A stretch of DNA of 64,000 nt. Source: Eledone cirrhosa (lineage: Eukaryota). The stretch's first letter is position 1; the number at the start of each line of letters is the position of its first letter. The notes under the pieces were generated by a model. The model saw only the letters and a list, made by a program, of their open reading frames with translations. It made no database searches and was not told the origin of the DNA. The position numbers and the translations under genes are program-made. Below are positions 4,985-63,125 of the stretch, in pieces. Location of the stretch: NCBI GenBank assembly GCA_964016885.1, contig OZ024743.1, forward strand, positions 279,558,001-279,622,000, written 5' to 3'.

Positions 4985-7170
4985 GTTTATGCACCAACCA
5001 AGGATTCCCAATGCTTGGCCTTCCTTGATGAAGTCCTTGCAGCGTTAAATGTATTTAAGACCGAGTCATATATCCCGATGGAAGACTTCAATGGACATGT
5101 TGGCACTGACAACCTGACATAGAAAGTAGTGGTTGGAAGGAATGGCAACACTGATCTAAATACGAATAGGGAGGCCTTACTAGACTTCTGTTCTAGCAAT
5201 GGATTCTCTATTATGAATACATTCTTCCAGCACAGAGACATCCATAAATGTACATGGTATAAGGGGAATCAGAGACAGAGATCAATAATTGATTTTGTTA
5301 TTGCCTCTAATCTCTTTAATCTGTGCTGGATGTTCATGTTAAGAGAAGTGCTGAGCTGTCAACTGATCACCATCTAGTTATCTGCAATTTGAAATTGCAT
5401 AAAGTCAAAGAAACCCACAAAGCTGGCAGGTCCAGGATAATCTACAGAATAAAGTGGGAAGCATTTGTGGATAAAGAAGTCAGGATAAGGTATGCAGATA
5501 TTATTGCATTCAAATTCAGAGAACTTCCTGAACATCAGAACGGTGAGACAGAGTGGAGATTGTTCAGCGCAGCGGTTTCTGCTTCAGCTGTTAAATTCTA
5601 CGGGCAAAAGAAGCTTGGTGTTGCGCGGGATGGCAGGGGGACCCATTTGTTCAAACAAGAGGTCAAAGATGCCGTCCGAGCAAAGAAGGAGGCTTGCAAA
5701 TCTTGGCTTGGAAAGAAGACCTCCTTCCTGCACTTACGGTACAAGCAATCACGAAAAACTATAGCAGAGAGAGTAAATGCTTCCAAAGTGAAAACATGGA
5801 AGGACTTTGGGTTTAAGTTGGAATCCGACTTCAGATCAGCAAATAAAGTTTTCTGGCAGACAATCCGAAGACTTTGAAACAAGAAGCCCTCCTCCACACC
5901 GGCTATCAACACCGCATCTGTGGTTCTTCTCTCTTCCGAGAGGTGCATCCTCGTGTAGTGGAGAGAATACTTTACTAATATCCCAAAACCCGATCGCAAC
6001 AGCATCAACAGATGTACACGAGATGCATCTGGGAGCGGTGACTAATCTCTCAGAGACTGAGGTCACAAGAGAAATTACAGAGCTCAAATCTAGGATGCCA
6101 CTGGGAAGATGAAATACTGCCAGAGATGTGAATAGCCTTAAATAGAGAAGGCTGACTTATGTGTGCCGGTTGGCCTGGATCTCTGGAAAGGCTTCTAAGC
6201 AATGACAATCGGGAGTGATAATCCCAATTTTCAAAAATGAAGACAAGAGAACTTATCAGTAACCCTGATAAGGTATATGCTAAGTGTATGGCAAAAAGTT
6301 ACAGGGAGATTGTCGAGTCCATACTAGCTGATAAATAGTGTGGTTTTCACCCTGGAAGAGTGCGTACTGTCACCTCTCTTGTTCATTATATTTTAGGATG
6401 AACAGGATTGACATGCGCAGCCGGGATGGAGTTGTATCATGACTGGTTGGTGTAAAATCATTCGGCTGGAATTTGCAGACAACCTGGTGTTACTTAATTC
6501 GACAGAAGATGATCTTTGACTTGCACTTGATAGGTTAGATGCCGAGTGTGGAATTAACATCAGTGCTGTGAAAACTGAGACACTCGTCCTCTCAAGGAAG
6601 CGTTTGCAGTGCGCACTGCGTATGAATGGAGTTCCACTGAAGCAGTTAGAGAAGTTCAAGTATCTTGGGGCTGTATTCACGAGTGATGGAATGCTAGGGG
6701 CTGCATTACGTACAGGAATTGAAGGAGCTGATGCAGTAATACGCCAGAATGGAGTTAGCCGTAAAAGCCAAACTCGCTGTCTTCAATTCAGTATTCGTGC
6801 CAACCCTTACCTATGGTCATGAATCTTAGGTAATGAGAGAAAGAATACAATCGCGAATACAAGCGGCCGAAATGGGATTCCTAGGAAGGATCTTTTTTTG
6901 GTAACGTTACTCGATAAAGTGGATGTCTCGCAGATCAGAGAGTCACTACATGTAGAGTCGCTACTTCTCAGAATTGAGAGATCACAGCTCCAATACTAGG
7001 GACATGTATTTAGAATGTCTCGGGAAAGAATTGATGTAGGGCTTGAGACCCAGAGGTAGACCCCAAACAAGGTGGTTGGATAATATAATGACCTTCGCTA
7101 GTCACTCTTGGGGATCCAAATGGTTGCTTCTGACAGGAAGCGCTCGACCCTCTCAGGAATGAATGAGCGA
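4985..7170 (+). mobile_element. Decayed RTE-clade (Expander/Rex3-like) LINE: APE endonuclease plus RT pseudogene
   Basis: Motifs DFNGHVG, NTFFQHRDIHKCTWY, SIIDFVI, VKRSAELSTDHHLV, IPIFK, GFHPGR, CVLSPLLF, EFADNLVL, FKYLG, LTYGHES and RGRPQTRWLD spread over several frames with stops. An internal RT deletion lies near 6360. Confidence 0.9.
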
Positions 7171-7197
7171 AGATGTAGAAGATGAAGATAGGTATAC

Positions 7198-7228
<31 letters not shown>

Positions 7229-7250
7229 CATGCACAAACACACACATCCA

Positions 7251-7282
<32 letters not shown>

Positions 7283-7288
<6 letters not shown>

Positions 7289-8055
7289 TAAAGTTAGTCC
7301 TTCATCAGTGATCTTCCAACCATCATTGGTATTTCATCGCTTTAAAGACCATATACCTCCGGTTGGTGCGAGCAACGGCTAAAAAAAGTCGTTGGGACAC
7401 GTAAATAAAGGGAACACGAGTGTAAACAAACAAAAATGGTGAAGCAACGAAAAGTGAGGAAGAAGGAGTCAAGTCCCAAATTTCTATGAATTTAAATTCG
7501 GTGAAATCGTGAACGAGAGAGAATAAAGACCATCAAACCTGGTTGGAATGTAAGCAAGGAAGGAATTCCGTACAGGTCTAACGGGAGGAAGAAGGGATCT
7601 AGTTGTGATTTCGGTGAACGTAAGTTCTGTGAAATCGTAGACGAGAGAGAGAAAAAAAGCGACCTGCCAGAACAAGGGTGCGAAAGAAAAGAATTACGCA
7701 CAGGTCAAACGGGAAGAAGGAGGAGGAGGAGAAGTAGTAACAGAGAATGAGTGAGTGAAGGGTGAGGAAGAGGCTAACAGAGAGAGTGACCGCTAGAGAG
7801 GGTAAAGATACAGAGAAAGAGGAAGCAGTAAGAACGAAATAGACGTGTAACAGCGGGGAAAAAATATATGTAAATATGACAAAAACGTGCTGCGGGGTTG
7901 CTAATGGGTTACATATGAATAAAGTTAGTCCTTCATCAGTGATCTTCCAACCATCATTGGTATTTCATCGCTTTAAAGACCATATACCTCCGGTTGGTGC
8001 GAGCAACGGCTAAAAAAAGTCGTTGGGACACGTAAATAAAGGGAACACGAATGTA

Positions 8056-8061
<6 letters not shown>
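7283..8061 (-). mobile_element. Element with 148-bp terminal direct repeats (period 631 bp) between TA arrays, PLE pLTR-like
   Basis: 7283-7430 equals 7914-8061 with one mismatch. The repeat carries ctgatgaaggactaac on the minus strand, identical to the 5' half of the hammerhead at 11555. Confidence 0.7.
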
Positions 8062-8127
<66 letters not shown>

Positions 8128-8271
8128 AAATAGGATTTCGCTTCAAGCATAGCTTTATACAATATGTATAGAAATTTTGTATTTCTAAAGAAACATGGTT
8201 TTAGGAAGCCGTAGCTATGCAAAACGGGGGCTTACGCCCTATGGTGGTGTCCAGCAGAAACAAGGGGTACA

Positions 8272-8315
8272 ACCGTCTATGCATTTCAGGCTTGACTGGC
8301 CTTCGTCAGGACGGT
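8272..8315 (-). ncRNA. Type I hammerhead ribozyme (minimal, palindromic stem III)
   Basis: Exact reverse complement of 8368-8411. Confidence 0.85.
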
Positions 8316-8367
8316 CCCTCCCACCGCTTGCTACTGCTGGACGTGAAAACAGTCGAGAGTGGAAGGG

Positions 8368-8411
8368 ACCGTCCTGACGAAGGCCAGTCAAGCCTGAAAT
8401 GCATAGACGGT
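8368..8411 (+). ncRNA. Type I hammerhead ribozyme (minimal, palindromic stem III)
   Basis: accgtc CTGACGA aggc cagtcaa gcct GAAA tgca TA gacggt. Stem I extends via aaggg/ccctt across a bulge. Confidence 0.88.
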
Positions 8412-8688
8412 TGTACCCCTTGCTTCTGCTGGACATCACCAGAGGTCGTAACCTCCGGTGTTTGCATAGCTACGGCTTCTTAAAACCGTATTTCTTTAGA
8501 AATACGAAATTTCTATACATATTGTATAAAGCTATGCTTGAGACGAAATACTATTTCTATTCTATTATAAGTTGAGACAACTGATGCAGCTTCATATGCA
8601 AATGAGATTAATAACCTCATTTACACAGACGAGAAAACTATATATTCTCGACTGTTTTCAAGTCCAGCAGTGGCAAGCGGTGGGATGG

Positions 8689-8732
8689 ACCGTCCTGACG
8701 AAGACCAGTTAAGCCTGAAAAGCATAGACAGT
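8689..8732 (+). ncRNA. Mutated copy of the 8368 hammerhead
   Basis: accgtc CTGACGA agac cagttaa gcct GAAA agca TA gacagt. Core is intact but the stems have mismatches. Confidence 0.7.
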
Positions 8733-8866
8733 TGTTCCCCTTGCATCTGCTGGACACCACCAGAGGGCGTAAGCCTCGGTGTTTACATAGCTACGGCTTC
8801 CTAAAACCGTATTTCTTAAGAAATACGAAATTTCTATACTTATATATATATATACCCACACACATG

Positions 8867-8911
<45 letters not shown>

Positions 8912-8914
8912 CAG

Positions 8915-8965
8915 GGCTTCCTGATGATTTCTCCCGAATGAAACACTTCTAGTCCTGTAGAAGCC
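8915..8965 (+). ncRNA. Type I hammerhead ribozyme, second family
   Basis: ggcttc CTGATGA t ttc tccc gaa t GAAAC ac ttctagtc ct GTA gaagcc. The paralog at 20791-20841 shows a compensatory stem I change. Confidence 0.8.
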
Positions 8966-9110
8966 ATTTCTATATTAAATATTTATACTCTGCTATGTAT
9001 TGAGTACCTTACTTACTGCGGTTACCCCCGATTGAAGCCGTGATAAACTTATATATATATAAGTAAGTATGTTTTGAAACAGTTAGCAGGTTTTAAATTA
9101 GAAAATAGAA

Positions 9111-9313
9111 TACCTTTCACCGTATTTTTGACTAAAGAAAATTTTTTTTTTTAGCCTGATAATGGGGTTTAGAAGCCTCAGATAAATGGAAAAAGATGAG
9201 TATTGACGTATATGTACGTCAATACTCATCTTTTTCCATTTATCTGAGGGTTTTAAACCCCATTATCAGACTAAAAACAAAAATTTCTTTAGTCTAAAAT
9301 ACGGTGAAAGCTA
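9111..9313. repeat. ~200-bp foldback palindrome with almost no loop
   Basis: Arms are reverse-complementary around gacgtatatgtacgtc at ~9212. Confidence 0.92.
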
Positions 9314-9334
9314 TATATATATATATATATATAT

Positions 9335-9965
9335 ATAATTGGATACTTAGTAAAATCGAATCTCTGGCGGTGTGCAAGCAAATTCGGCCTACTATATGAA
9401 TGAGTTAGCAAGCACTCGACAAGGTAGGTCCTTAGATAATAACATACGTTTAAATAGCTTGACAAATTGAACATTGTTGTAGGCAAAATCCAACACACAA
9501 TACCAAAGTAACGAAAGAACTAACAGGTTGAGAAAAATACACCTGGACAAATCAAACGTTATACGTTTAAAATGTTTCTATGAATCCGAAATCAAATATC
9601 AGACTTACGTAACTGGCAAGCTCGTGGTATTCATCATCGAACAGAGGATTCAGTTCCTCAACAGGTTTTCGTTCTACCAAAGAATGGGGCGAGAAGCTAA
9701 ATGTTGCGGCTAGCTGCAGCGTATCGTATATTTAGTTGTCACGTGTTATTTCCAGCAAGGGAAATAACCCCGGTTTTTGGCGGATCATTCAAAATGTTAG
9801 ACAAAGGAAATATTATAATTTCCGCTAACCATCAGAATAAGCTCTCGACCAGATGTTATTAAACAAACACAAATAATTAACCAATAAACAGAATTGTCTA
9901 ATTAAATTAATTAGTTAATTATTAAATCTAGGAGAAAATAATATAATTGGATACTTAGTAAAATC
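9335..9965. mobile_element. ~630-bp element with 24-bp terminal direct repeats between microsatellites
   Basis: tataattggatacttagtaaaatc occurs at both ends. A very degenerate hammerhead-like string lies on the minus strand at ~9762-9836. Confidence 0.5.
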
Positions 9966-9966
9966 A

Positions 9967-10100
<134 letters not shown>

Positions 10101-11079: not shown

Positions 11080-11668
11080 TGCTATATCAAGCGTTAACCT
11101 AGTATATACCTTTCATATACTGTACCGATTGTGTTGTTATTGCTCTTTACCTCTCACATACATATATATATATATCAACGCTTACGTGGACCTCTCAAAA
11201 CTCGTTGGATTTTCTGATTGGACTTTCACCTCGAAACTGGATACCAACCCGGAGTACACCTGAAATCTTTCGTAACTTTGAAATTCTCTTTGCTCCTTGC
11301 ATTTAAATATTCCACTACTCTCCTCCACTTTTCCTCTACTACATTCTTCTCAGCCGTATATTTTTCACTCCCACCCTAGTACCGTCAATATGCCCAATTT
11401 CAAATATTTTCTCCGCCAGCTCCATTCTACTCTCAAGCGCTTCCTCCAACCTCTCCCCCTATATGAATGGACCTATTATTTTTATCTAAATACATTTTTT
11501 TTCCAATTCCATCCCGTCCGTCCCCTTAATCTATTTTAATTCTCATTCTTTCTTCTGATGAAGGACTAACGTCCGAAACGTTAAAACCCTTTTCCTGCTA
11601 TATCAAGCATTAACCTAATATATACCTTCCACATACTGTACCGATTGTGTTGTTATTTCTGTTTACCT
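11080..11668 (+). mobile_element. PLE pLTR-like unit: ~65-bp terminal direct repeats (period 516) with a hammerhead
   Basis: tgctatatcaagc...tgtaccgattgtgttgttatt at 11080 and 11596. The hammerhead core lies immediately upstream of the second repeat. Confidence 0.7.
11553..11585 (+). ncRNA. Minimal hammerhead ribozyme core
   Basis: CTGATGA a ggac taac gtcc GAAAC GTTA with a palindromic AACGTT stem III. Stem I is weak. Confidence 0.65.
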
Positions 11669-12774: not shown

Positions 12775-13102
12775 TGTTGTTATTCCATTCATTTTTTCTG
12801 TTTAGCCTTGGCCATCGCTGGCCTCTCTGATTTGCCTATCTGCTGGGTCATTTCTATGTTTAGATATTATTCTACTTTCTATGTTGTCTGTGTTACTGGC
12901 ATGTTCGTATAGTACTGAACCGTTTTTTCGTCCTTTTAGTTCCCCCAGCGTTGGTCTATCCCTTCACCTATGCTACGAGCTGTCTCGCCTATGTATGTTG
13001 TTGTCATATTTCTGCAAGTAGCCTCTCTACATCTTATGCTATAGACTACGTTTCTAGTTTTACAGTTTATCCGGGGGTTTACTTTACATCGCAAAAAACT
13101 AA
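12775..13102 (-). pseudogene. Penelope-like element GIY-YIG endonuclease C-terminal fragment
   Basis: NCKTRNVVYSIRC..C..TYIGETARSIGE (ORF 12936-13259), continuing in shifted frames as VLYEHA, IISKHRNDPADRQIREA and LNRKNEWN. Confidence 0.85.
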
Positions 13103-35825: not shown

Positions 35826-36223
35826 TATGTTCTAAAGTTAAATGCTTGCCGCTGCCTCTTAACTAAGTTCGCTTCGCTTAAATTGCTTTCCAATCCAGCA
35901 TATCTATTTCATATAACATCATGTACTATTCTATCTATATAAGGGGAAAAAAATAATATTATGAATTAGCTTTTTGCCTCAACCTATAATCAAAATTTTG
36001 CGCGTTACAGCAACTCCATGTACAATCTGTTTTTATATTTAATTACTTATTTGACACCCAATGTTTGATATGAGCTATGTTCTTATTATTTTTTGAATTT
36101 GGTAAACTTTGTTGTTCTCTCTCACATTTCCTGAAGTAATGCAGTTATCATAATATAATAAAAGAAGTCGTGAATATATTTTTTTTATCCTGTTAGTAAA
36201 ATAAGTTAGATTACTTTCAATAA

Positions 36224-36531
36224 ATAATTGTTTCTACTTTTGGCACAAGACCAGAAATTATCCCAGTGTATTACTGGTACTTTATTTTATCGGCTCCGTA
36301 AGGATGAAAGGCAAAGTTAATCTCGGCGGGATTTGAGGTTACTTTGAATAAATAATTGTTTCTACTTTTGGCCAAAGGCCAGCAATATACCAGTGCATTC
36401 CTGGTACTTTATTTTATCGACCCTGTAAGGATGAAAGGCAAAGTTAACCTCGGCGGGATTTGAACTCAGAATGGCAAGGGCCGTAACTCAATGCGTCAAA
36501 GCATGCTGTCAGACCGTCTACCGATACTGCC
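36224..36531 (-). mobile_element. Two tandem SINE family A copies
   Basis: aataaataattgtttctacttttgg...ggcgggatttga repeated head to tail. Confidence 0.88.
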
Positions 36532-37070: not shown

Positions 37071-37072
<2 letters not shown>

Positions 37073-37260
37073 GGAAAATGTTTGAAACCGACGGCAGAGC
37101 TCAAGCCGTTTCGACGGATATTTCCGGAGTCCAGAAATATCCGTCGAAACGGCTTGAGCTCTGCCCTCGGGGTCAAATATTTTCCTATTACCCACTCTAC
37201 TACCCTAAGTATTGAGTAATTGCGTTATGGTCCTTCTGGTTTCTTACCACACCTCCTTTA
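37071..37260. mobile_element. Foldback element containing the 3' half of a hammerhead on both arms
   Basis: Palindrome 37071-37187 with arms ccgtc GAAACGGC ttgagctct GCCGTC. A paralog lies at 42009-42197. Confidence 0.8.
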
Positions 37261-37490
37261 CACTGTATGCTTAATTAAAAGCATTTTGAAGACCTTACGC
37301 TATTGTTTTAAGTTACTGACTATATCACTTACTTCTTTTTTCAACAAAAAGAAGTAAGTAACATAGTCACTACTTTAAAAGAATAGCGTAAGGTCTTCAA
37401 AATGTTCTAATTAAGCATAAAGTGTATTGCAAAACACACTATATATACATTCATATATATATATCGCTATTTCAGAGCACCAATTCTAAT
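37261..37490. mobile_element. Short foldback derivative of the 52.8-53.6 kb family
   Basis: Same sequence as 53461-53603, with an inverted 5' arm and centre ttttttcaacaaaaaga. Confidence 0.85.
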
Positions 37491-39739: not shown

Positions 39740-40121
<382 letters not shown>

Positions 40122-40445: not shown

Positions 40446-40450
<5 letters not shown>

Positions 40451-41030
40451 TTAGCACCCTGTAACCATTAAGCTCTAAGTATAAAGTACAAATAAATACT
40501 GAGCCGATTAACAATATATAGTAAGAAACACAGTAAACCGTGTGTCTAAAATTACAAAGGTTGAAAAACAACATATGCTTGAAATATTTAACCAAGAAAC
40601 AGACAGGATGACAAAATGAAAATAAAAATATATTATCATAATACAAACGGCCTCAATAACCATTATATCTCTCGGACAGATTATCCCTAATCTGTTTCGC
40701 CCTGAGTGTGTTTGTAACAGATAATCCTGGGCTTCATCAGCGAGAGATTGCAATTAAATGTCACAAACACTATTTGCCAAGGTTCACACAGAAAGATGAA
40801 TTTATCACCTCGTGCGCCGCCAGTCAAACGTGGTAAGCGCGTATTGAACAGAAATAACAGTCCAACACGCACAACTTAATAGCTCATCCTGTAAGAGAGC
40901 CGAAATATATATATGAATTAGAACCCTGTAACCATTAAGCTCTAAGTATAAAGTACAAATAAATACTGAGCCGATTAACAATATATAGTAAGAAACACAG
41001 TAAACCGTGTGTCTAAAATTACAAGGGTTG
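40446..41030 (-). mobile_element. PLE pLTR-like unit with 118-bp terminal direct repeats (period 467)
   Basis: 40446-40563 approximately equals 40913-41030. Flanked by TA arrays, with an internal hammerhead-like core. Confidence 0.75.
40681..40750 (-). ncRNA. Degenerate hammerhead ribozyme
   Basis: CTGATGA a gccc(loop)gggc GAAAC aga TTA. Stems I and III pair poorly. Confidence 0.5.
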
Positions 41031-41112: not shown

Positions 41113-41236
41113 TATATATTGGTAAACGGAATAGAAAATGCTGACAAATTGTTCACAGTTGAAAAATGGTTTAATTAGGAATAATTAAACCATTTTTCAA
41201 CTGTGAACAATTTGTCAGCATTTTCTATTCAGTTTA

Positions 41237-41246
<10 letters not shown>
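41113..41246. repeat. ~130-bp foldback palindrome abutting (TA)n
   Basis: Arms are near-perfect around taattaggaataatta. Confidence 0.92.
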
Positions 41247-41819: not shown

Positions 41820-42264
<445 letters not shown>

Positions 42265-44457: not shown

Positions 44458-47400
44458 TTATTATTAGCCACAAGGGCGCACAAGAAAAGGTGACAAAACA
44501 AAGACATGCCGGGGATTTTACATACAATGGTGTAAACAAATATTATAACAATCGAAATCCCCAATAGGGGGGAGGCGCCACAAATGGGTTGTTTAATACC
44601 CGGTCGATATAACAACCCTCAACTTCAGGAGCGTGTTGTGCATGTGCTCCCTTCTTCGTTTTGCTCTCTTCTTTAACCTACAGGCTTATAAACAGAGAAG
44701 GCCCAATCACTCGGGCCATTTTCGCTTCATTCACCCACCTTTCAGTAAATTTACTGGGGTGCAGTGCCTCTCTCTCCACTCTGATTCTTCTTCTAAAGTG
44801 ATACTTAAAGAAGGGAATCAATTGTTGTCCGGAGAGAAATGCATCTGTCCTCAGTCCTCTCAATCTCATCCACCATATAACCTCTTTCACCATAGCCACT
44901 GTACAGAGGAAAGCCGCTTCTCTTTCGTTTTTGAAAGAGGCTGGCGGTTTGGTCCTTACTATGGACTCGGCAATCAACTGGATTTGTCCCATACGCGACA
45001 GCAGTTGTTCTGCATAGTTCCAAAGGTCTCTTACGCACTGGCACTGAACAATTGTGCGTGCAAGACGGTTTCAATGTCCTGCTCGCATCTTGGGCACGTC
45101 CTCTTGGAAGGATCCCTGCCGGGGCGTCCGTACCTGTAGATATTGTCTCGAACGGGTAGCACTGCCAGGCCAGGGACCTCTGGAAGTTGTCCATAGGTCC
45201 CGGGCGGAAAGTCCTACCGAACAGACTGGTGAGCTCGTCGTCTTCGATGCCTAGAGTCTCCCCGAGCACGACGTCGCACTTGTAAAGTACTAACCCGCTA
45301 TAGAATGTCGAAGTGGAGTCTCCACTGATTCCTGTTCCCGCTTGATAGAGGACTGTGAGCACCTGAGCGCATTCAATATGCCAGGCGCCCATCTTCTTTG
45401 GTATTCGCTTGACCCAGGACTGCATCTCCGTCAGTGAGACAAGTTGTGGGAAGGCCTGTCTCATAAACGGTGCCCAGACAGGTTGGTCGATGTGGAATAC
45501 CTGGAGATGCCGTAGCCGCAGCGCATGTTTGCGCATCATTAGCCACGGCATGCCCAGCCCTCCGTTGCGAAGGTGTTGACAGCATACGGATCTCCTCACC
45601 AGTGGAGCTTGTTTCTTCCACAGGAACTGGAAGAGTATGCCTTCCATCTTGGTGAGGTATTCACGGGGACAAGGTACGACAGTCAAGCGGTAGTAGATGA
45701 CGGTCGCTATGAAAGTGTTCAACTGTTTCGCTCGACCTTCAAAGACAGTTTGCACTCTGCCCACTTCCGGGTGAACGCAAATACCTTGGCCATGACCTCG
45801 TTCCAGTTTTTCTGCACCTGGAGGTCTGGACGCAACCAGACCCCGAGCAATTTCACCGGTCCTTCCATCCAGCGTCTGACGACACTGTCGGACGGCATCA
45901 GTTTGCTTCTCCACGTACCGAGTTGCAAACCGACAGACTTGTCCGGGTTTAGTTTTGCTCCTGTGAACCTTTCGTATTCCTGTAGTAGGTTGCCGATTAC
46001 CTCGATTTCCGATGTTTTCGACACCATTACCGTCACGTCTGCAGAAACCGACGCCGCTTTTCGCAGTACCGGTTCTAAAGATATGCCCTGCAAAAGCTCC
46101 AACTTCCGCAGTAGTGGCTCTAGAGTCAATACGTACAGAATGGGGGAGAGAGGGCATCCCTGTCGTATAGAACGCGTAATTGCGAACGGCTCCGATAGGT
46201 AGCTGTTCACCTTGACCGTCGAGCAAATATTGGTATGCCTTGATCCAGCCTCTGAAAACGGGACCGAAACCGGCCGCCTTGAGAACCGCTTGCAAGTATC
46301 GATGGTCGACCCTATCGAATGCCTTAGACTGGTCTAAATTGATCAGAGCCCCACCGGAGCCGGGTTTACACCCCATCCTCTCTATGATGTATCGCATGAG
46401 GTGGAGGTTGTCGTGTATAGACCTGGTCGGGATTGCACACGTTTGCGCTTTCCCTACCAGGTTTTCAATGACAAGCGCCAGCCTCGTTGCTAGCACCTTG
46501 GCCAAAATCTTTAACTGTGTGTTGAGCAGATTTATGGACCTGAAGTTTTTAATTTCATCCCCCTTTTCCGAAACATGACAGTCACTCCCCCTCAACCTCT
46601 CGTCTTTCTTCATCAGCGTTACTACGCCCTTGCTTGCAGAACTGGGATCCTCCCGTTCTGCTACAAATTGCAGTAGCCGGCTTCGAGGACGCCAGAGAAC
46701 AAGTCCCGCATGCTTATGTAAAACTCATAGGGTAGACCATCTAGACCGGGGGTCTTGCGTTTCCCGCAGCGGCCCAGAGCGTCCCGTATCTCAGTGTCCA
46801 TGATCGGTCTTTCGCAGAAATCGGCGCCCTTGTTCGAGAGACGTGGCAGGCCCTCGAGGTATGAACTAAAGTCCATTGCCCCGTTCGGCTCACCGTTGTT
46901 CTGCTCAAACAGTCGCGCAAAGTGCTGCTGAAATGCCGCGCACAATTGCTTGGGGTCAAGTAGCACGCGTCCGTTTTGGTCTTTCAAAGACTGAATCGTG
47001 GACTTGTTGCCACTTTTCGCCTGCGCCACTCGAGCACAGCTTTCGCTCCTTCGTTTCCTAGAACACGCGTTTTGCTTCTGACCACACAGCCTTCGTGTTT
47101 CGCGTCGAAGAACTGGTCCAGTGCCGTTCTCGACGCTAACATTCTAGGCGCGTTTCCACTCCTAAGCGCCTCTTCTACCTTGGGTACTAGTTCTGTTTCT
47201 GATTTGTTTTTCGCTAAAGCTAATTCTCTGCTAAACCCTATCGATTCTACTCTAATTGCTCTCTTGAGAGAGTAGCACCATCTATTGTTGACGATGGCTC
47301 CCGTCAACTCTTGCTTAACTAATCTACTTATCCGTTCACTGTAGGCTTTTCGTGCCGGCAACGACACGTTCAGCCTCCAGTATCCGGGTCCTTGTCTATG

Positions 47401-49500
47401 TATTCTATCACGGTTGACTATGCAGACGACTAGTTTATGATCTGAATAGGCAACTATGTACATTTTTGGACAGCTTAACATCTACTTGTCCTTTTCTCTA
47501 ATGAAAAACCTAGATACGATCTAGATGTCTCGCTGCGGTTTGCCCACGTCCACTGTGGTGAAGTCGGGAAATCCAGTCGATACCTATCGGCCAGTTGGAA
47601 TTGGCCGATTAAAGTTTTGAGGCTGTTGCACCCCCCTCTACTGGGACATGATCATACATAGGCCACTCGTGCATCTAGGATACCATACCAGTCCCCCACT
47701 AAAAGAAAGGAGTGAGACGTTCCCAGAAAAGACTCTAGACGCTTAAAGAAGTCTGGCCGCAATTGGGATTGCCCGGTCGGGGCATAAACAGCCACCAGTC
47801 TGAAGGCTCCACTTCCAATACTGTTCACGTCTAGGACTACCAGTCTACCCTCCGGGTCCAAGTGTACATGCTGTACTTTGAGATCCAGGTTTTTCCGAAA
47901 CATGACAGTCACTCCCCTTCAACCTCCCGGCTGACAGAGAGATGCGTAGATCTCAAAGTCATTAAAGATGTGGGTTAGTTGCTGCCTGTTGTGGATCCTG
48001 GACTCAGTGATGGCTATTACAACTATACCGTGTGACCTAACGTCGTTTAAAAGTTGGCCCTGTTTCCAGGGCATCCCTAGGCCACGCACATTCACGCTTC
48101 CAACTCGTAAGTCAGCCATGTTGGTGGAGAAGTGTTGGTGAAAATGACGAAAAGGTGCACTTACCTTTTCGTTTCCTGGAGATCGGGTTGTCCAATTTCC
48201 ATTTCAGTTCTGGTGTGGGTGTTGAGTGGCGTGGGGAGACATTTCAACAGGACACGGTTTATTTGTTTTTGGCATGGGTTGCCAAAGTCCTGTTAAAACT
48301 GTTCTTTCAATTTCTGATAGGTTTCTATCGAAACCCTTATTAGTTTTAGGTGTGGTTGAGAGTCTGCTTTTACAAAAGTTTTCCCATCAGTTTCTACTTT
48401 GGGGTCTTGGGAGATGACCTCCATTAGGTTTTTTGTTTGTGTTAATGTATGTGTATTGTTGTTTTGTTTTTTTTTGTTATACTGTTTTGGTCTGTTGTTC
48501 ATTTTGTAGTTTTCTTTTTATGGTGGGCATTTGTGTTTGGGGTGGAGTTGGTTTTTGTTTTGCTAGTAGGTGGGGCTTTGATTTGGTGGTGTTTGTGTTG
48601 TTGTTTGTGTTGCTGGTTGTGTGTTCGTGTTGGTTATTGTTGTTTTTGTGGCTTTGTGGTGTCTCTTTTTTTGTTTTTTTTTTAATTTACGAGGCTCTCC
48701 TTCATCTTCACTTGGGGATGGAGACGTAGACTCGTCTGGTGATGAATCGTCAGGGGCGGGAGGGGGGGGGGGTATGTTGTGTGGTGATGGTGTGTTTGTG
48801 TGTGTGATTGATTGTGGTAGTGTTGGATGGAGTGGGATCGGTGGGACTGTGTTTTTCAGGGGTATTGTTTGTGTTTTTTCTGTTGTTTGTGGTTGAACAG
48901 TTGTTTGTTTTTGTGTGTTTGCTTGTTTTGTGTTGTTGTGGGTTTGGAGTTGGTGTTGGTAAAAGTAATTTTTGGGGGTGGTGGTGTTTGTTCGTAAGAG
49001 GGGACAGGAGGCCTCTAAAAGCTATGTGCTTGCGCATTTAAAACAATGTGGCCTCCCCTCTTCTGCCGAAATCTGTATATAGTTTGTATTGTCTACTGGC
49101 ACCCTTTCTGGTATCATGGAAATTCTGTCCGGTTTCATTTGGACCAAAATTTTCAAGTTTGTGCCGTTCCAGGTGTTTCTAGTAGATTATTGAATCGACA
49201 GTATTGTGTCTTCATCCTCTTCCAAGAACCCTGCCAGAATCCACCAGATATTAATGTTGGGTGGCATATTGGGGATGTTTATTCTTTGTGTTCTTTTTCC
49301 CATGTATGTAGGGAAAAAGGTGTGTGTGGAAGAGGTAACTGGGGTCACTGAGTATATTTTCGCAAGCGCCTCACTTTTGAAGAACACCGATTGCAACATT
49401 CCTATAGTATGCGTTCATTTCATCTATTTCATGAAGGTTTGTGTGGCTTGATAATATTGTATATGCTACTGTCGTAATAAAAGATATGTTTGTCCCAAGA
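44458..49500 (-). mobile_element. Near full-length L1/Tx1-clade LINE (ORF1 partial plus ORF2), frameshifted
   Basis: ORF1 has an RRM-like region and a decayed zinc knuckle GRPHCFKC. ORF2 motifs as listed in the next feature. The 3' end is aataataaa followed by (TCTA)n. Confidence 0.92.
44640..48119 (-). pseudogene. LINE ORF2 (APE endonuclease plus reverse transcriptase), multiple frameshifts
   Basis: MADLRVGSVNVRGL, VYAP, GDW, SDHK, GPGYWRLN, KTPGLDGLPYEFY, NFRSINLLN, LDQSKAFDRVDH, RQGCPLSP and GGLGMP. Confidence 0.92.
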
Positions 49501-50640: not shown

Positions 50641-50650
<10 letters not shown>

Positions 50651-50896
50651 TGATAAGAGGAATTCCAACTTTGTCTGATTTACTCGTTTTATTTACAATC
50701 CTTTGAAATATATAATGGTATTATAATGAAATAGTATGATAGAATATTAAATTCTAAGTGTTAATTGAACAAGTTTAACACTTAGAATTTAATATTCTAT
50801 CATACTATTTCATTATAATACCATTATATATTTTAAAGGATTGTAAATAAAACGAGTAAATCAGACAAAGTTGGAATTCCTCTTATTAATATAATA
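50641..50896. repeat. ~255-bp foldback palindrome
   Basis: Arms are reverse-complementary around attgaacaagtt (~50769). The following tail ctatac-aatcatacacacccgtgtatattta also occurs at 20282. Confidence 0.93.
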
Positions 50897-51607
50897 TTCT
50901 ATACACAATCATACACACCCGTGTATATTTACCTATCTATATCTATATATAAATATATATATACACACACACTTGACCTGGAGAAAATACGCTAGTGTTG
51001 TATGAAGTGATAATATTCGCCATTATCGTATGGTATAGCAACTGTCGAATCTCCAACGATAGAATAGTCTTAATTTAGATAAACTGTTGTCTATATTCTC
51101 ATTCGAAGAACTTTTATTTTGTAGGGGAAAACGTCAATTTTCTCCGAAGCTTTTAATCACAATTTGAACTATTATGGTTTCTCTGCCATGATTTCCCTTG
51201 TACCAATTCTAGAACTCATTAAATGAAATATAAGAGTAAGAACGGGCTATTTCCTGTTAATAATTATGCCTCGTAGTCTATTGTTGATCTGAATGTTGTT
51301 GATTTTGTTTAACCCTAGTCAGGCATGATCGAATATAAATATGATGAGTGGCATTCCAGTCGAAACCATACATTCTCTATTTAGATATAACGTTTCCAGG
51401 AGTACATTATCGAACGAATCCTTCCATGGGTTAGAATTGTACTTAATGGCAATTTCGTTGCTATTTCTAGCATGTTGGAAGATTATCCTTCTTTCATTGA
51501 ATAATTGAATATTTGTAAACTCTAGTATAGGATTCAGATCTATATACAGGCATACATACACATATACACACACACACACACATACACACACACATATATA
51601 TATATAT

Positions 51608-52755
51608 AATAACTAGAAATTGATTAACATATAAATAAACATGAATAATCACAGGAGATAATTTTTACAAATGTGTAACCACACATAGCTAGGTAGGTAA
51701 CTAAATAAAGTTGACCAGAATTTCAAAAATAGATACCTTATAATATGATTAATCTTCCCTGTATATATTCCATTAAAGAAATATATTTCACCAATTAATC
51801 GGATGGTAAACCACGGAAGTGGAGACTTGGATTTTCAACAAGGAAGAAGTTCCAGCGATCCGTGTTTACACTTCAAGTTCAAATCAGCGACTGGCCAGTA
51901 ACACCTGCTATATTTACTAGGAATACACACATCATACTAGCTTCGTCCAAGTAGCTTGAATAGGGATATCGACAACTAGAAACAGCAGTCGAGTCCATTC
52001 AACAGAGTTAGCTCTACAATTAAGGAGCCGTATTTATATATCTATATCCAAAATTAAGATGAATCAAATGAATTTAATCTAAATCAAAATTATGGGTGTC
52101 ATGCCAGAAAGACATGCGCCATATCACCTGCAAAATAAGCTCTAAGATTCTAACGAATAGGTCCGAGCATTTTATAATAACTAGAAATTGATTAACATAT
52201 AAATAAACATGAATAATCTGTTGAATGGACTCGACTGCTGTTTCTAGTTGTAGATAACCCTATTCACGCCACTGGGACGAAGCTTGTATGATGTGTGTAT
52301 TTCTAGTAAATATAGCACGTGTTACTGGCCAGTCGCTGATTTGAACTTGAAGTGTAAACACGGATCGCTGGAACTTCTTCCTTGTTGAAAATCCAAGTCT
52401 CCACTTCCGTGGTTTACCATCCGATTAATTGGTGAAATATATTTCTTTAATGGAATATATACAGGGAAGATTAATCATATTATAAGGTATCTATTTTTGA
52501 AGTTCTGGTCAACTTTATTTAGTTACCTACCTAGCTATGTGTCGTTACACACTTGTAAAAATTATCTCCTGTGATTATTCATGTTTATTTATATGTTAAT
52601 CAATTTCTAGTTATTATAAAATGCTCGGACCTACTCGTTAGAATCTTAGAGCTTATTTTGCGGGTGATATGGCGCATGTATTTCTGGCATGACATCCATA
52701 ATTTTGATTTAGATTAAATTCATTTGATTCATCTTAATTTTGGATATAGATATAT
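51608..52755. repeat. 1.15-kb compound inverted/tandem repeat (A-B-x-D-A-B'-A'-D')
   Basis: 51608-52004 inverts 52218-52614, 52036-52178 inverts 52612-52755, and block A repeats directly at 51609 and 52178. Confidence 0.9.
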
Positions 52756-52872
52756 ATATATTTATATGAATGTATATATAGTGTATTTTGCAATACACTG
52801 AATGCTTAATTAAAAGCATTTTTAAGACCTTACGCTATTGTTTTAAAGTAGTGACTATGTCACTTACTTCTT

Positions 52873-52972
52873 TTTTCAACAAACAAAGGGAGATAAGCTG
52901 ACAGATCGCTGTTTCCTAGTTTCCTACTGTTGGTATTCCCCAGAGCTTAGCACTCCCCTTGTTTGAGGAAAA
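52873..52972 (-). ncRNA. Hammerhead, mutated copy of 53371-53462
   Basis: taagct CTGGGGA ata..tag GAAAC (8-nt duplication) ag cgat ct GTC agctta. Confidence 0.7.
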
Positions 52973-53370
52973 TTATGGATGCTGGATTCTTATAGAATTC
53001 CAGTAATAATCAGGAACTGATTATCCAGGGCGGTTGCCGGTCCAGCAAAAATCGAAAATTAGAATTGTTGCTCTGAAATAGCGATATATATATATGAATG
53101 TGTATATACAGTGTATTTTGCAATACACTGTATGCTTAATTAGTCACTATGTTAATGCATAGACACTACTTTAAAACAATAGCGTAAGGTCTTCAAAATA
53201 CTTTTAATTAAGCATACAGTGTATTGCAAAATACACTATATATACATTCATATATATATCGCTATTTCAGAGAACCAATTCTAATTTTCAGTTTTTGCTG
53301 GACACGCAACAGCTCTGTATAATCACTTCCTGATTATTACTCGAGGTCTATAAGAATCCAACATTCATAA

Positions 53371-53462
53371 TTTTCAACAAACAAGGGGAGTGCTAAGCTC
53401 TGAGGAATAACAGCAGTATGAAACAGAGATCTATCAGCTTATCTCCCTTTGTTTGTTGAAAA
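53371..53462 (+). ncRNA. Type I hammerhead ribozyme with a very long bulged stem I
   Basis: ttttcaacaaacaaggggag tgc taagct CTGAGGA ata acagcag tat GAAAC ag agat ct ATC agctta t ctccctttgtttgttgaaaa. Confidence 0.85.
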
Positions 53463-53599
53463 AAGAAGTAAGTGACATAGACACTACTTTTAAACAATAG
53501 TGTAAGGTCTTCAAAATGTTTTTAATTAAGCATTCAGTGTATTGCAAAATACACTATATATACATTCATATATATATCGCTATTTCAGAGCGCCAATTC

Positions 53600-53692
<93 letters not shown>

Positions 53693-53811: not shown

Positions 53812-54002
53812 ATACACAATTATGATAATTAAGTAACACAGAATCAGTTTTGCATCTTATACGTATTTAATCACATATTACAACTGCCGATCAGCTCAGG
53901 GTTCGATCGAGTATGTTCGTTCAGATATGTGCTTACACATGTAGACTCACACCCACATCTTTTATTGATACTCTGCTTCCCAATAGCATCAAGTGCTTAT
54001 CA

Positions 54003-54180
54003 CATGTTGTTGAAGTGGGTTTTACTCCGCCAATACATCGATATGTCCAGCTCCTGGTTGTTTTGTTATTTCTCTAAGGAACTGGAATCATATCATTGCA
54101 GTTCCTCAGAGAAATAACAACGCAACCAGGAGATGGACATATCGGAGTATTGACGGAGTAAAACACACTTCAACAACATG
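54003..54180. repeat. ~180-bp imperfect palindrome directly upstream of a hammerhead
   Basis: catgttgttgaagtg...gaactg / cagttc...cacttcaacaacatg. Confidence 0.9.
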
Positions 54181-54208
54181 TATACCTGTCTCTCCCACAC
54201 TAATTGGG

Positions 54209-54263: not shown

Positions 54264-54886
54264 ATATCTATAATTTATAATAAACGAAGCCAAATTTTAC
54301 ATATTTGACTTAATTATTTATTTATATATATATATAGTTATAATAGTGACATATACAGGTACTTAAGTTTCGTTGGGTTATACCGACCACCCACCAACCC
54401 TTACACATTCAGCCTAAAATAAAAATGACTACCTCCATATGTTGATTTCAGTTTTTTAGGAAATTTACGAGTGTTCTTTAATGGAATGTAATTTCGAATT
54501 TAGCTATAAATATACAAATCGTTTAGGTAATGTAAATGGAGGTAACTATAAAAAAAACAACACAAAAGGGGAACTTGTGCAAAGTTAGTAATACTAAGAA
54601 ATAAGATTCCTTGAAATGGAATCTGTTAGTCTGGTCTATACCATATTCTCAGAATCAATTTCGCCTCATGTGGTCGGCGACTACTAAACATACCGTATAT
54701 ACTTAGCTAAACGAGATTCCCATTCATGTATCTATACAGCTTTGCCAAAGTTAAAGTTTAATTCTACCTTCAAGTTGAGCCAACTTATAGAAGTTCATAG
54801 GCAAATGTGGTTAATCAGCCCACCTATACAGGAGGAAAAACTATATATTTTCGCCTGTTTCACTTTACAACAGAGAGTAGGGAAGC

Positions 54887-54930
54887 ACTATCCTGATGAG
54901 ACAGAGAAGTTCGAAATGCGTTTAGATAGT
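54887..54930 (+). ncRNA. Type I hammerhead ribozyme, slightly decayed
   Basis: actatc CTGATGA gacagagaagttc GAAA tgcgt TTA gatagt, with a 6-bp stem I. Confidence 0.7.
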
Positions 54931-55079
54931 TGTCCCCCGCTGCTTGTGCTCTAATCGGCTAGACTGCGTTAGACGTCAAAGTTTAAATATTCATAGCTGG
55001 GCTATCGAAATATGTATTTATTAATCATAGGGTGTATCTTTTAATAGACTAAATTCACATGTATAAAGCTATGCCGTAG

Positions 55080-55196
<117 letters not shown>

Positions 55197-56375: not shown

Positions 56376-57372
56376 TAGCCGAATTACCCGCGCCTTGCTG
56401 CGTTTCACACATGTGAGAAAATGATGATTGATTTTAAATCAGTGATATAATTTATGGGGAAAAACTCTCCATTACAATATTCATCGATGTAAAATGTAAT
56501 GCATGAAACATTGGAAAACATTATTTTTTGTAATATATCAAATCAAAATTACACTATTATTTTGTTTTTTGTAAATAATTTTTTTTGTAAATAATGTTTT
56601 TCAAAATATCACTTCAAAACTTTGTGAATAGGCATCATATCTTGTCATTTAACTATGGTTTAAATTTCATATAAATCGAAGGGAACAACTTTTCACCGGG
56701 GGTTTTGGGCCTCCGGGGAACTTAATAGGGGATTTAGCTCCCATTAGGTTGTCTTAATATTATTGAAATTTACTGAAATTTCGTGAATATGCATCATATC
56801 TTACATTATTAAATTTTATTCTTACATCATATCGTACATTATTAATAAGCTTACATTATTAGAATTGGCAGTATCGGTAGAGGGTTGGACGCCATGCTTT
56901 CTAGCATAGTTACGTCCCTTTACAGTCTGAGTTCAAATCCCGCCGATGTTAACTTTGCCTTTCATCCTTACAGGGTCGATAAAATAAAGTACCAGTAATG
57001 TACTGGGTAATTGCTGGCCTTGTGCATAAAGTAGAAACAATTATTAAATAATCTTACATTATTAAATATTATTCTTATTTTGTTTCTTGTAAATAACATT
57101 TTTCAAAATATCAATTCAAAACTTTGTGAATAGGCATCATATCTTGTCATTTAACTATGGTTTAAATTTCATATAAATCGAAGGGAAAAAACCTTTCAGC
57201 GGGGGTTTTGGACCCCCGAGGAACCCTTTCATTAAAATGAAATATACTTATCCAAGTACCCTGGGCAATGTAGTTTAAGAATATATATGGTTATGGCGGT
57301 CTTTCTCCAAAACCATAGGAGGAGTTCATGAACAAACACACAAACAAACAAACAAACAGGAATACACCTTTA
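56375..57372 (-). mobile_element. Non-autonomous Helitron, copy 2, with an internal duplication and a nested SINE
   Basis: Minus-strand 3' end cgcagcaaggcgcgggtaattcggCTAG|T and 5' (tgtt)n. 56555-56720 is repeated at ~57075-57222. Confidence 0.75.
56864..57046 (+). mobile_element. SINE family A, full-length copy nested in the Helitron
   Basis: Head ttggcagtatcggtagag, B-box gttcaaatccc and tail aattatt. Confidence 0.9.
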
Positions 57373-61388: not shown

Positions 61389-61764
61389 ACACACACACAC
61401 ACACAAACACAAACACACACACACAAACACACACATACACACACAAACACACACACACACATACACACAACTAAACACACACACATACACAAATACTTAC
61501 ATGCATACATACCTAGTTAGCCAACAAATGATTCATGTTTATATATTAGAAACCGGCTCTATCTATATAAATCAGAACCTACATATATATACATGCATGT
61601 ACATATACGTACATACATACATAAAAGTGGAAGAAATTTATGGATATTATATTAGCCAACCCCATTATGTTACATATTCAGTCATGTAAAAAAAATATTT
61701 ACACTCGCCTAATCAACACGATCTACCAAACTCCGAGAAGCAACACATAACAATCTCAGTAAAA

Positions 61765-62372
61765 TAATGATTTCTACACAAGGCCAGCAATTATTGGGGA
61801 GGGGATAATTAATTAGATCGACCCCCATCCATTATTGGTGCTTTCTTTTATCGACCACGTATGGATGAAAGGAACAGCTAAATTCGGCGGGGTTTGAACG
61901 CAGAACTTAAAGGAGAGCAAATCTGTGCTATTATCCGATACTCTATAGATATATTTGTATATTTGAAATCTAAGCATTCCAACGGAAATGTCAAAATAAT
62001 TGTTTCTAATTTTGGCACAAGGCCAGCAATTATCCCAGTGTATTTTATCGACTCTGTAAGGATGAAAGGCAAAGTTAACCACGGCGGGATTTGAACTCAG
62101 ACCGTAAAGGGACGTATCTATGCTGGAAAGCATGGCGTCTGACCCTCTACCGATACTGCCAATCCGTCAAAATAATAACCGACTACTATGATTAATTATT
62201 TCTACTTTTGGCACAAGGCCAGCAAATACGCAGTATATTACTGGTACTTTATTTTATCCACCCCGTAAGGATGAAAGGCAAAGTTAACCTCGACGGGATT
62301 TGAACTCAGACCGTAAATGGACGTAACTATGCTAGAAAGCATGGCGTCCAACCCTCTACCGATACTGCCAAT
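61765..62372 (-). mobile_element. Three tandem SINE family A copies
   Basis: Copies at ~61765-61915, 61995-62163 and 62195-62372. Confidence 0.9.
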
Positions 62373-63125
62373 TCAACGAGATAAAAATCTGCTGGTTATG
62401 GAAAAGGCGCACCCCTCATTTTGCACACGCCAAGCATGTGTGTTAAATCTCTAAATTAAACAGCAGATTGTCCCTAATTCAGATTTTAAGATTTGAAGCC
62501 TATCACTAGATTTGCGAACAATTTGAAAAACCCTATTGTAGACAGCTGCTTTCCACGTCAAAGATATGCAGAGTTCGATTCTTGGTAGTCGCCACTGCCC
62601 ACATCTTTTCGTCTCATCTCAATGTGTGTGTGTGAGTGTATGTGTGTGTGTATACATGCATACATATACATGCATGCGTAGATACATAGCTACTGACCTA
62701 TATATACTGTATATATGTATATATACACATTCATACTAAAAATCATGCATAAATACACGCAACTACATAGAGATATACATATAAATACACACATACATAT
62801 ATGCATAAATACAGCTACACCTACATATGGACATATATACACATATATGTGCCTGCATATATGCATACTCATAAATATATACTATTTGTATCATATATAG
62901 AATATATTGAGTGGTTTAGATGTACAGATGTGTACATAACAAGATCATTTATTCTTATTACAAGCTAAAATTATTCGGCCGATGCACAAAATATGCCTTA
63001 GGCAGTCCGCCATGAGGTTAATATTCTACTTCTAATGGTCTGTGATTGAGACGTTGTTTTCTTGACTGGATTCCTTAGAAGTTGCTCCATGTAAATCTAT
63101 CTGTCTATCTTTCTCACACACACTC

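Follow-up and report, generated by a model that had tools for sequence, protein, structure and literature searches.

The layout of a 321-nt hammerhead-bearing unit in Eledone cirrhosa suggests insertion by a Penelope-type retrotransposon

Non-LTR retrozymes have been described as repeats of 150–450 bp with a GC content below 50%, which carry type I hammerheads and give self-paired circles; examples include Rtz331 of the axolotl and the 350–390 bp repeats of mussels (PMC7229834; bioRxiv 10.64898/2026.07.22.740005). The title of a 2026 preprint claims that animal retrozymes derive, as non-autonomous elements, from Penelope-type retrotransposons (PLEs) (10.64898/2026.07.22.740005), and the published support for PLEs as the mobilizers of retrozymes consists of co-occurrence and sequence kinship. 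The insertions of PLEs show a partial tandem, an adjacent inverted truncated copy, a tail of 30–40 bp and a bias toward (TA)n (PMC8557442; PMC11167929). In an anole PLE, the length of the tail matches the spacing of two internal starts of reverse transcription (PMC11167929). According to a review, PLE hammerheads in general have a very short palindromic stem III.

In the present study, we analyzed a 64-kb stretch of E. cirrhosa DNA (64,000 nt, hereafter the window) and compared a locus near 8 kb with these systems. Like the non-LTR retrozymes, this locus has a short non-coding tandem unit with a GC content below 50%, one type I hammerhead per unit, a weak palindromic helix III, a strongly self-paired predicted circle and a high copy number. 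Unlike the known retrozymes, it belongs to a new sequence family and shows a PLE-type tail and inverted copy; its helix II starts with A-U instead of the usual G-C. Like PLE pseudo-LTR insertions (PMC8557442; PMC11167929), it combines a partial tandem, an adjacent inverted 5'-truncated copy, a (TA)n target, a one-end tail of 30–40 nt, and 3' ends about 100 nt past the hammerhead, whereas it has no reverse transcriptase (RT) or endonuclease frame and its period appears to be fixed rather than set by truncation. The hammerhead resembles the PLE min-HHR in being of type I, in its palindromic stem III region and in its predicted action as a dimer; in contrast to the min-HHR, with a helix II of 7–8 bp, a helix I of 4–5 bp and a bulged base after A9, it has helices of 4 and 7 bp, respectively, and no bulge (PMC4209133). 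The Chlamys elements, such as MRC1, are comparable non-autonomous PLEs that give pseudo-LTRs and head-to-tail copies; unlike the 8-kb element, they are algal and mostly lack hammerheads (PMC8557442). The element class, the size range and the dimer idea are already published. In the literature searched, we found no PLE tail plus inversion on a retrozyme, and the main text of the 2026 preprint uses neither "tail" nor "inversion" (10.64898/2026.07.22.740005). Octopus, Penelope and the hammerhead ribozyme were joined by one PLE survey alone in the same literature.

Based on its sequence features, we interpret the locus, with a probability of roughly 0.8, as a single old insertion of a non-LTR retrozyme, a PLE derivative that is non-autonomous and has a unit of 321 nt. 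The features are as follows.

8061–8125, no strand: (TA)n tract at the left end, the putative insertion target
8126–8161, minus strand: 3' extension ("tail") of about 36 nt, on the left end and missing from the right end
8126–8358, minus strand: copy A, inverted and 5'-truncated, 233 nt, head to head with the tandem
8271–8316, minus strand: hammerhead A, intact; its core lies at 8309 and cleavage is predicted after 8278
8358–8359, no strand: inversion junction, with at most weak microhomology of 2–4 nt
8359–8679, plus strand: one full 321-nt unit
8367–8412, plus strand: hammerhead B, intact; predicted cleavage after 8405
8406–8726, plus strand: monomer releasable by double cleavage (predicted only)
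8455–8560, plus strand: hairpin cluster containing both 3' end points, the putative region of reverse-transcription start
8680–8843, plus strand: copy C, an incomplete second unit that extends to the short 3' end (8839–8843, blurred by a TA run)
8688–8733, plus strand: hammerhead C, decayed; the core is preserved, and helices I, II and III each have a single broken pair
8841–8911, no strand: (TA)n-rich tract at the right end
54680–55082, plus strand: divergent relative of about 1.2 units with a period of 329; its hammerhead core lies near 54888

Three type I hammerheads were detected at the 8-kb locus. Their CTGACGA cores lay at 8374 (+), 8695 (+) and 8309 (−); the core was kept in all three copies and intact helices in two. 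The predicted cleavage sites on the plus strand, after 8405 and after 8726, were 321 nt apart. A strict type I scan of the whole window returned two motifs (8374+ and 8309−), compared with none in each of 100 block shuffles of the window. When one mismatch was permitted per stem, seven motifs were returned, including 8695+, compared with a shuffle mean of 0.1 and a maximum of 1. Hammerhead B consisted of a helix I of 7 bp, the core CUGACGA/GAAA, a helix II of 4 bp with a 7-nt loop, and the helix III palindrome AUGCAU, and hammerhead A shared both helix lengths and the palindrome. Hammerhead C kept the core but satisfied the relaxed scan only. Rfam gave no hammerhead match at the gathering score in the whole window and none at E≤10 locally around the locus, so the identification rests on the descriptor scans and on covariation. 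The Rfam matches to miRNAs and snoRNAs at E≤10 were hairpin-driven and were dismissed as artefacts of the palindrome. At the level of sequence motifs, these results confirmed that the three hammerheads are real and beyond chance. The first-pass annotation had placed hammerheads at 8368 and 8689, 321 nt apart, with an inverted one at 8272; the scan recovered these motifs, and the positions given correspond to the stem I ends. The TGCA palindrome that it reported was present in two of the three copies and reads AGCA in the copy at 8695. Its term "minimal" does not apply, as a helix I of 7 bp, a helix II of 4 bp and a palindromic helix III of 1–2 bp make up the canonical metazoan form (PMC4209133). 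Type I hammerhead-like motifs of other families occurred at 39884 (+), 42539 (−) and 54214 (+), each with a short palindromic stem III region and beside palindromes or TA runs.

A retrozyme has been called active when two consecutive complete ribozymes are present at a locus (bioRxiv 10.64898/2026.07.22.740005). In our dimer model, hammerheads B and C paired with three broken pairs, whereas two intact copies formed all six pairs with none broken. Of the earlier proposal, a constant monomer length of about 320 nt was supported, as was a type I hammerhead that is linked to PLEs and can dimerize through its palindromic stem III. The further proposal that the tandem copies at this locus supply the dimer was not supported: the second copy breaks three pairs, the inverted copy is antisense, and in the folded read-through transcript 8126–8843 the entire segment 8367–8413, which holds ribozyme B, was paired with the inverted arm. 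Because copy C is decayed and ribozyme B is buried in this hairpin, the 8-kb locus is probably inactive and would give a long hairpin rather than a monomer; activity would lie in other copies of the family. For an axolotl ribozyme with a one-pair helix III, monomer cleavage of 6% and much better cleavage of the dimer have been reported, and by analogy a dimer requirement is plausible for the 321-nt family. Over the 164 shared columns, private differences numbered 9 in A, 4 in B and 11 in C (alignment-dependent), and 6 of those in C lay around its ribozyme. Copies A (8261–8319) and B (8364–8422) were identical over 59 nt at the palindrome centre, with 0/59 differences around the ribozyme compared with 16/141 elsewhere, and they share letters that are rare in the family. 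Arm-to-arm conversion between A and B may have occurred, on marginal evidence (the chance of such a clean run is 0.049 when the window is not hand-picked); an inner-outer gradient was not consistent in the other palindromes examined in the window.

The insertion anatomy of the locus corresponds to that of PLEs, with a partial tandem, an adjacent inverted 5'-truncated copy, a tail on one end with an offset of 36–40 nt, and (TA)n on both sides. The plus-strand part (8359–8843) comprises 1.5 tandem units, and its direct repeat is just 164 nt at 90% identity (8359–8522 and 8680–8843), which leaves a single interval from which to read the local period. Copy A is equivalent to unit positions 8646–8679 plus 8359–8558 and starts 34 nt further upstream in the unit. 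Relative to the cleavage site, the right 3' end lies at about +117 and the left at about +153, an offset of 36 nt, or as much as 40 nt given that the right end is blurred by the TA run. A target duplication is unreadable, since (TA)n borders the locus on both outer sides. By analogy with published insertions, this layout suggests that a Penelope-type retrotransposon pasted the unit into the genome.

The proposed mechanism would proceed in the following steps. An intact tandem at another locus would be transcribed, and two hammerheads would pair via the AUGCAU palindrome and cut out a monomer, which a host ligase may circularize. A PLE reverse transcriptase-endonuclease would nick (TA)n DNA, and copying would begin within the unit, at hairpins located at about +117 and +153 relative to the cleavage site. 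The first cDNA would cover 1.5 units, from 8843 back to 8359; the second, of 233 nt, would be made from the other nick and joined head to head with the first. After insertion, the copies would decay to about 90% identity. We infer dimer cleavage, host-ligase ligation and internal PLE priming because these steps have been described in published systems. That the PLE RT starts at two fixed hairpins of a ribozyme-made circle, rolls across the ligated site and inserts into (TA)n is a tentative proposal, to which we give somewhat less than even odds. Two unrelated families in the window have the same geometry, with ends at +117/+153 from the cleavage site in the 8-kb family and at +142/+168 in the 53-kb family.

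Within the same element class, an uncleaved linear multimer may have been copied instead, with the hammerhead as a passenger or aided by protein and no circle formed; this variant is possible, though we lean against it. In the one PLE studied in vitro, mutating the ribozyme left insertion unaffected and unprocessed RNA served as the principal substrate (PMC11167929). Cleavage was dispensable in the anole system (PMC11167929), and just one of nine Xenopus dimers was cleaved (10.64898/2026.07.22.740005). Nearest-neighbour energies do not favour the dimer fold even for the intact model (−154.6 for the dimer fold vs −156.9 for two monomer folds) and are uninformative between the two. The sequences of B and C diverge at about 10% of sites, and C lacks letters common to A and B; decay after insertion, however, accounts equally well for the differences between units. 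The related retrozymes of coral, mussel and axolotl accumulate as circles, which argues against a purely linear template.

The non-LTR retrozyme reading of the locus also makes use of the properties of the unit and its family. The unit 8359–8679 had a GC content of 40.8% and stops in all six frames. Pfam returned no match for either of its two longest plus-strand frames, and a coding remnant was ruled out on this basis. No frame of at least 100 aa overlapped 8126–8843, and the RT plus GIY-YIG frame of an autonomous PLE was not found there. A tRNA-derived SINE was also ruled out, since the unit has neither a B box (0/23 matches in 8126–8843) nor a tRNA-like head; no tRNA was detected in 7000–10000. 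Folded as a circle, the unit had a predicted energy of −99.3 kcal/mol with z-scores of −7.8 and −7.1 in two runs (range −6.8 to −7.8), and the ribozyme was placed on a long stem. The five control stretches all gave z between −1.8 and +0.8, the 53-kb unit −3.5 and the 54.7-kb relative +1.0.

The family was surveyed by matching the unit 8359–8679 at a fit of at least 80% to four sequencing runs from at most three samples of two studies; runs X1 and X3 come from a single sample, possibly related to the source of the window. The unit was matched by 4,036 and 4,183 contig pieces and by 1,826 and 1,543 reads, and it belongs to a high-copy family. No RNA run was listed among those containing the unit, a result that carries no information on expression. 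The summed depth was 119–183 thousand over 8579–8633, a segment that is single at the 8-kb locus, compared with 101–162 thousand over the ribozyme. This spacer is as deep as the ribozyme and is therefore part of the family unit. The depth fell to 40–47 thousand at 8546–8567, compared with 100–180 thousand elsewhere, with a deeper dip at 8447–8457; both dips arise because the 8-kb copy differs there from most copies at several sites. The drop at 8546–8567 also means that many copies do not visibly cross the 8558/8559 junction. Among the 16 pieces listed (of 8,458), four bridged this junction, two gapless, one with one gap and one with 11; the two gapless pieces are probably one locus present in both runs. 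Loose ends behind 8522 (8522–8523) were found in 78 and 83 contigs, with a mixed (agreement 0.6) and partly tail-like consensus. At 8558, 103 and 122 reads ended loosely into a TA run, probably at one locus whose flank is unlike that of the window, and a larger pile lay at 8565 (296 and 221 reads). Loose ends were thus seen at the positions of both 3' ends of the locus. Joints that "go back 320–321" were rejected as a test of the period: they connect the two reference ends at a point within the unit, immediately upstream of the ribozyme, and would appear in every copy. The junction that is informative for the period is 8558/8559.

The divergent relative at 54.7 kb was 61% identical to the unit over 465 columns (score 250, compared with a shuffle maximum of 89) and was colinear across the position equivalent to the 8558/8559 junction. 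It ended at a (CA)n tract that lies within the tail region, and its period of 329 was taken from the tail anchor. A period based on the alignment (median 309, range 296–322) was set aside, since the upstream part of the relative aligns poorly (self-tandem score 62.5 vs a shuffle maximum of 60.5). In its hammerhead near 54888, 4 of 11 helix pairs were changed on both sides, that is, compensatorily. Five of 500 shuffles reached four compensatory pairs, in a test on only four sequences with the covariation coming from one divergent sequence. The tandem monomers of 321 nt at 8 kb and 329 nt in the relative both lie within the retrozyme range of about 150–450 bp. The spacer depth, the bridged junction and the colinear relative with its period of 329 together favour a fixed monomer over an accidental truncation.

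These observations bear on a second alternative, in which the locus derives from an autonomous PLE whose 3' end, 5'-truncated, was inserted as a partial tandem, and 321 nt is a chance length left by truncation. We consider it unlikely: other family pieces cross the same junction gapless, a 61%-identical relative has the same junction at a period of 329, and the region upstream of the ribozyme shows no coding trace while the entire unit is structured. The insertion signatures are nevertheless all those of autonomous PLEs, the depth at the unit junction is below that of the rest of the unit, and the window holds partial tandems of period 516 and 467 with PLE-type hammerheads (11555 and 40740) as well as a GIY-YIG-like fragment at 12939–13100 (a lead only). 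Those tandems, at 11080–11668 and 40447–41030, lie between TA runs; their hammerheads (11555+ and 40740−) are nearer to the PLE form than the 8-kb ones, and they are probably truncated PLE ends. The broken GIY-YIG-like fragment (12864–13100, minus strand) has cysteines inside the core, as in PLE endonucleases, was negative in Pfam and was linked at 0.92 to an Atlas cluster with GIY-YIG on 16% of its members, again a lead only. The 64-kb window yielded no autonomous element with a matching end as a partner.

Collectively, the retrozyme interpretation is supported by hammerheads beyond chance, compensatory pairs, the circle fold, the high copy number and the lack of a coding trace; against it stand the lack of an Rfam match, the depth drop at the junction and the poor circular fold of the relative. 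A satellite or foldback repeat that was amplified at the DNA level, through unequal crossover or errors of replication, and inherited its hammerhead as a relic is very improbable. The window does hold at least 12 short palindromes, and the 2026 preprint proposes that PLE ends are amplified locally in tandem (10.64898/2026.07.22.740005). Retrotransposition is indicated, however, by the presence of just 1.5 units, by the dispersal of the copies, by (TA)n on either side and by defined 3' ends that include a tail.

Further repeats of the window resemble the locus in part. The 53-kb family (52758–53603) forms a partial tandem (period 318–330) with an inverted copy, (TA)n flanks and a hammerhead at 53400; its ends are 26 nt apart, further fragments lie at 37259–37490, and it has no sequence similarity to the 8-kb family. 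The first-pass annotation had called the two families unrelated, and the alignment scores of 62 and 66, compared with shuffle means of 59.6 and 58.0, agree with this. Its suggestion of a common size constraint was not upheld. Retrozyme families have mean sizes of 313–342 bp in amphibians, insects and a coral, and sizes range from 51 to 972 bp (10.64898/2026.07.22.740005). About 320 nt is the usual size of retrozymes, so the coincidence is expected, and the partial tandems of the window have periods of 195, 318–330, 321, 467, 516, 568 and 631, not all with a ribozyme. A partial tandem at 51605–52760 (period 568, 97% identical) has an inverted copy, and no hammerhead core was found in it. Another at 7279–8068 (period 631, 99% identical) contains only the first half of a hammerhead core and adjoins the 8-kb locus across the TA tract at 8061–8125. 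Near-perfect short palindromes were observed at 9114–9310, 17538–17642, 37071–37187, 41120–41239, 42089–42194, 50646–50893 and 54002–54181, with spacers of 0–10 nt and mostly beside (TA)n; these are probably minimal inverted PLE-type insertions. The DNA looks molluscan, since Mollusca are named in the nearest Atlas clusters of one fragment, on the basis of 2–3 members in each cluster, and an abundant short repeat may point to an octopus. The window is rich in microsatellites (125 tandem-repeat rows) and contains LINE-type reverse transcriptase fragments at 44805–47481 (−) and 17633–18538 (+), both with RVT_1 matches, and at 5320–6822 (+). An abundant SINE-like repeat has more than 10 copies in the window, including 1659–1760, 15299–15489, 36208–36531, 56862–57047 and 61761–62375.

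In summary, what the locus adds to the described systems is anatomy, namely a fixed-period retrozyme unit with a PLE tail, a 5' inversion and a (TA)n target. Such insertion signatures are a more direct kind of support for mobilization by PLEs and can be counted across the genome. If priming on a circle proves true, these loci would be in vivo footprints of a step that retrozyme models still lack, thousands of copies would allow a direct test of PLE mobilization and of a circular versus a linear template, and the partner PLE could be recognized from the tail.
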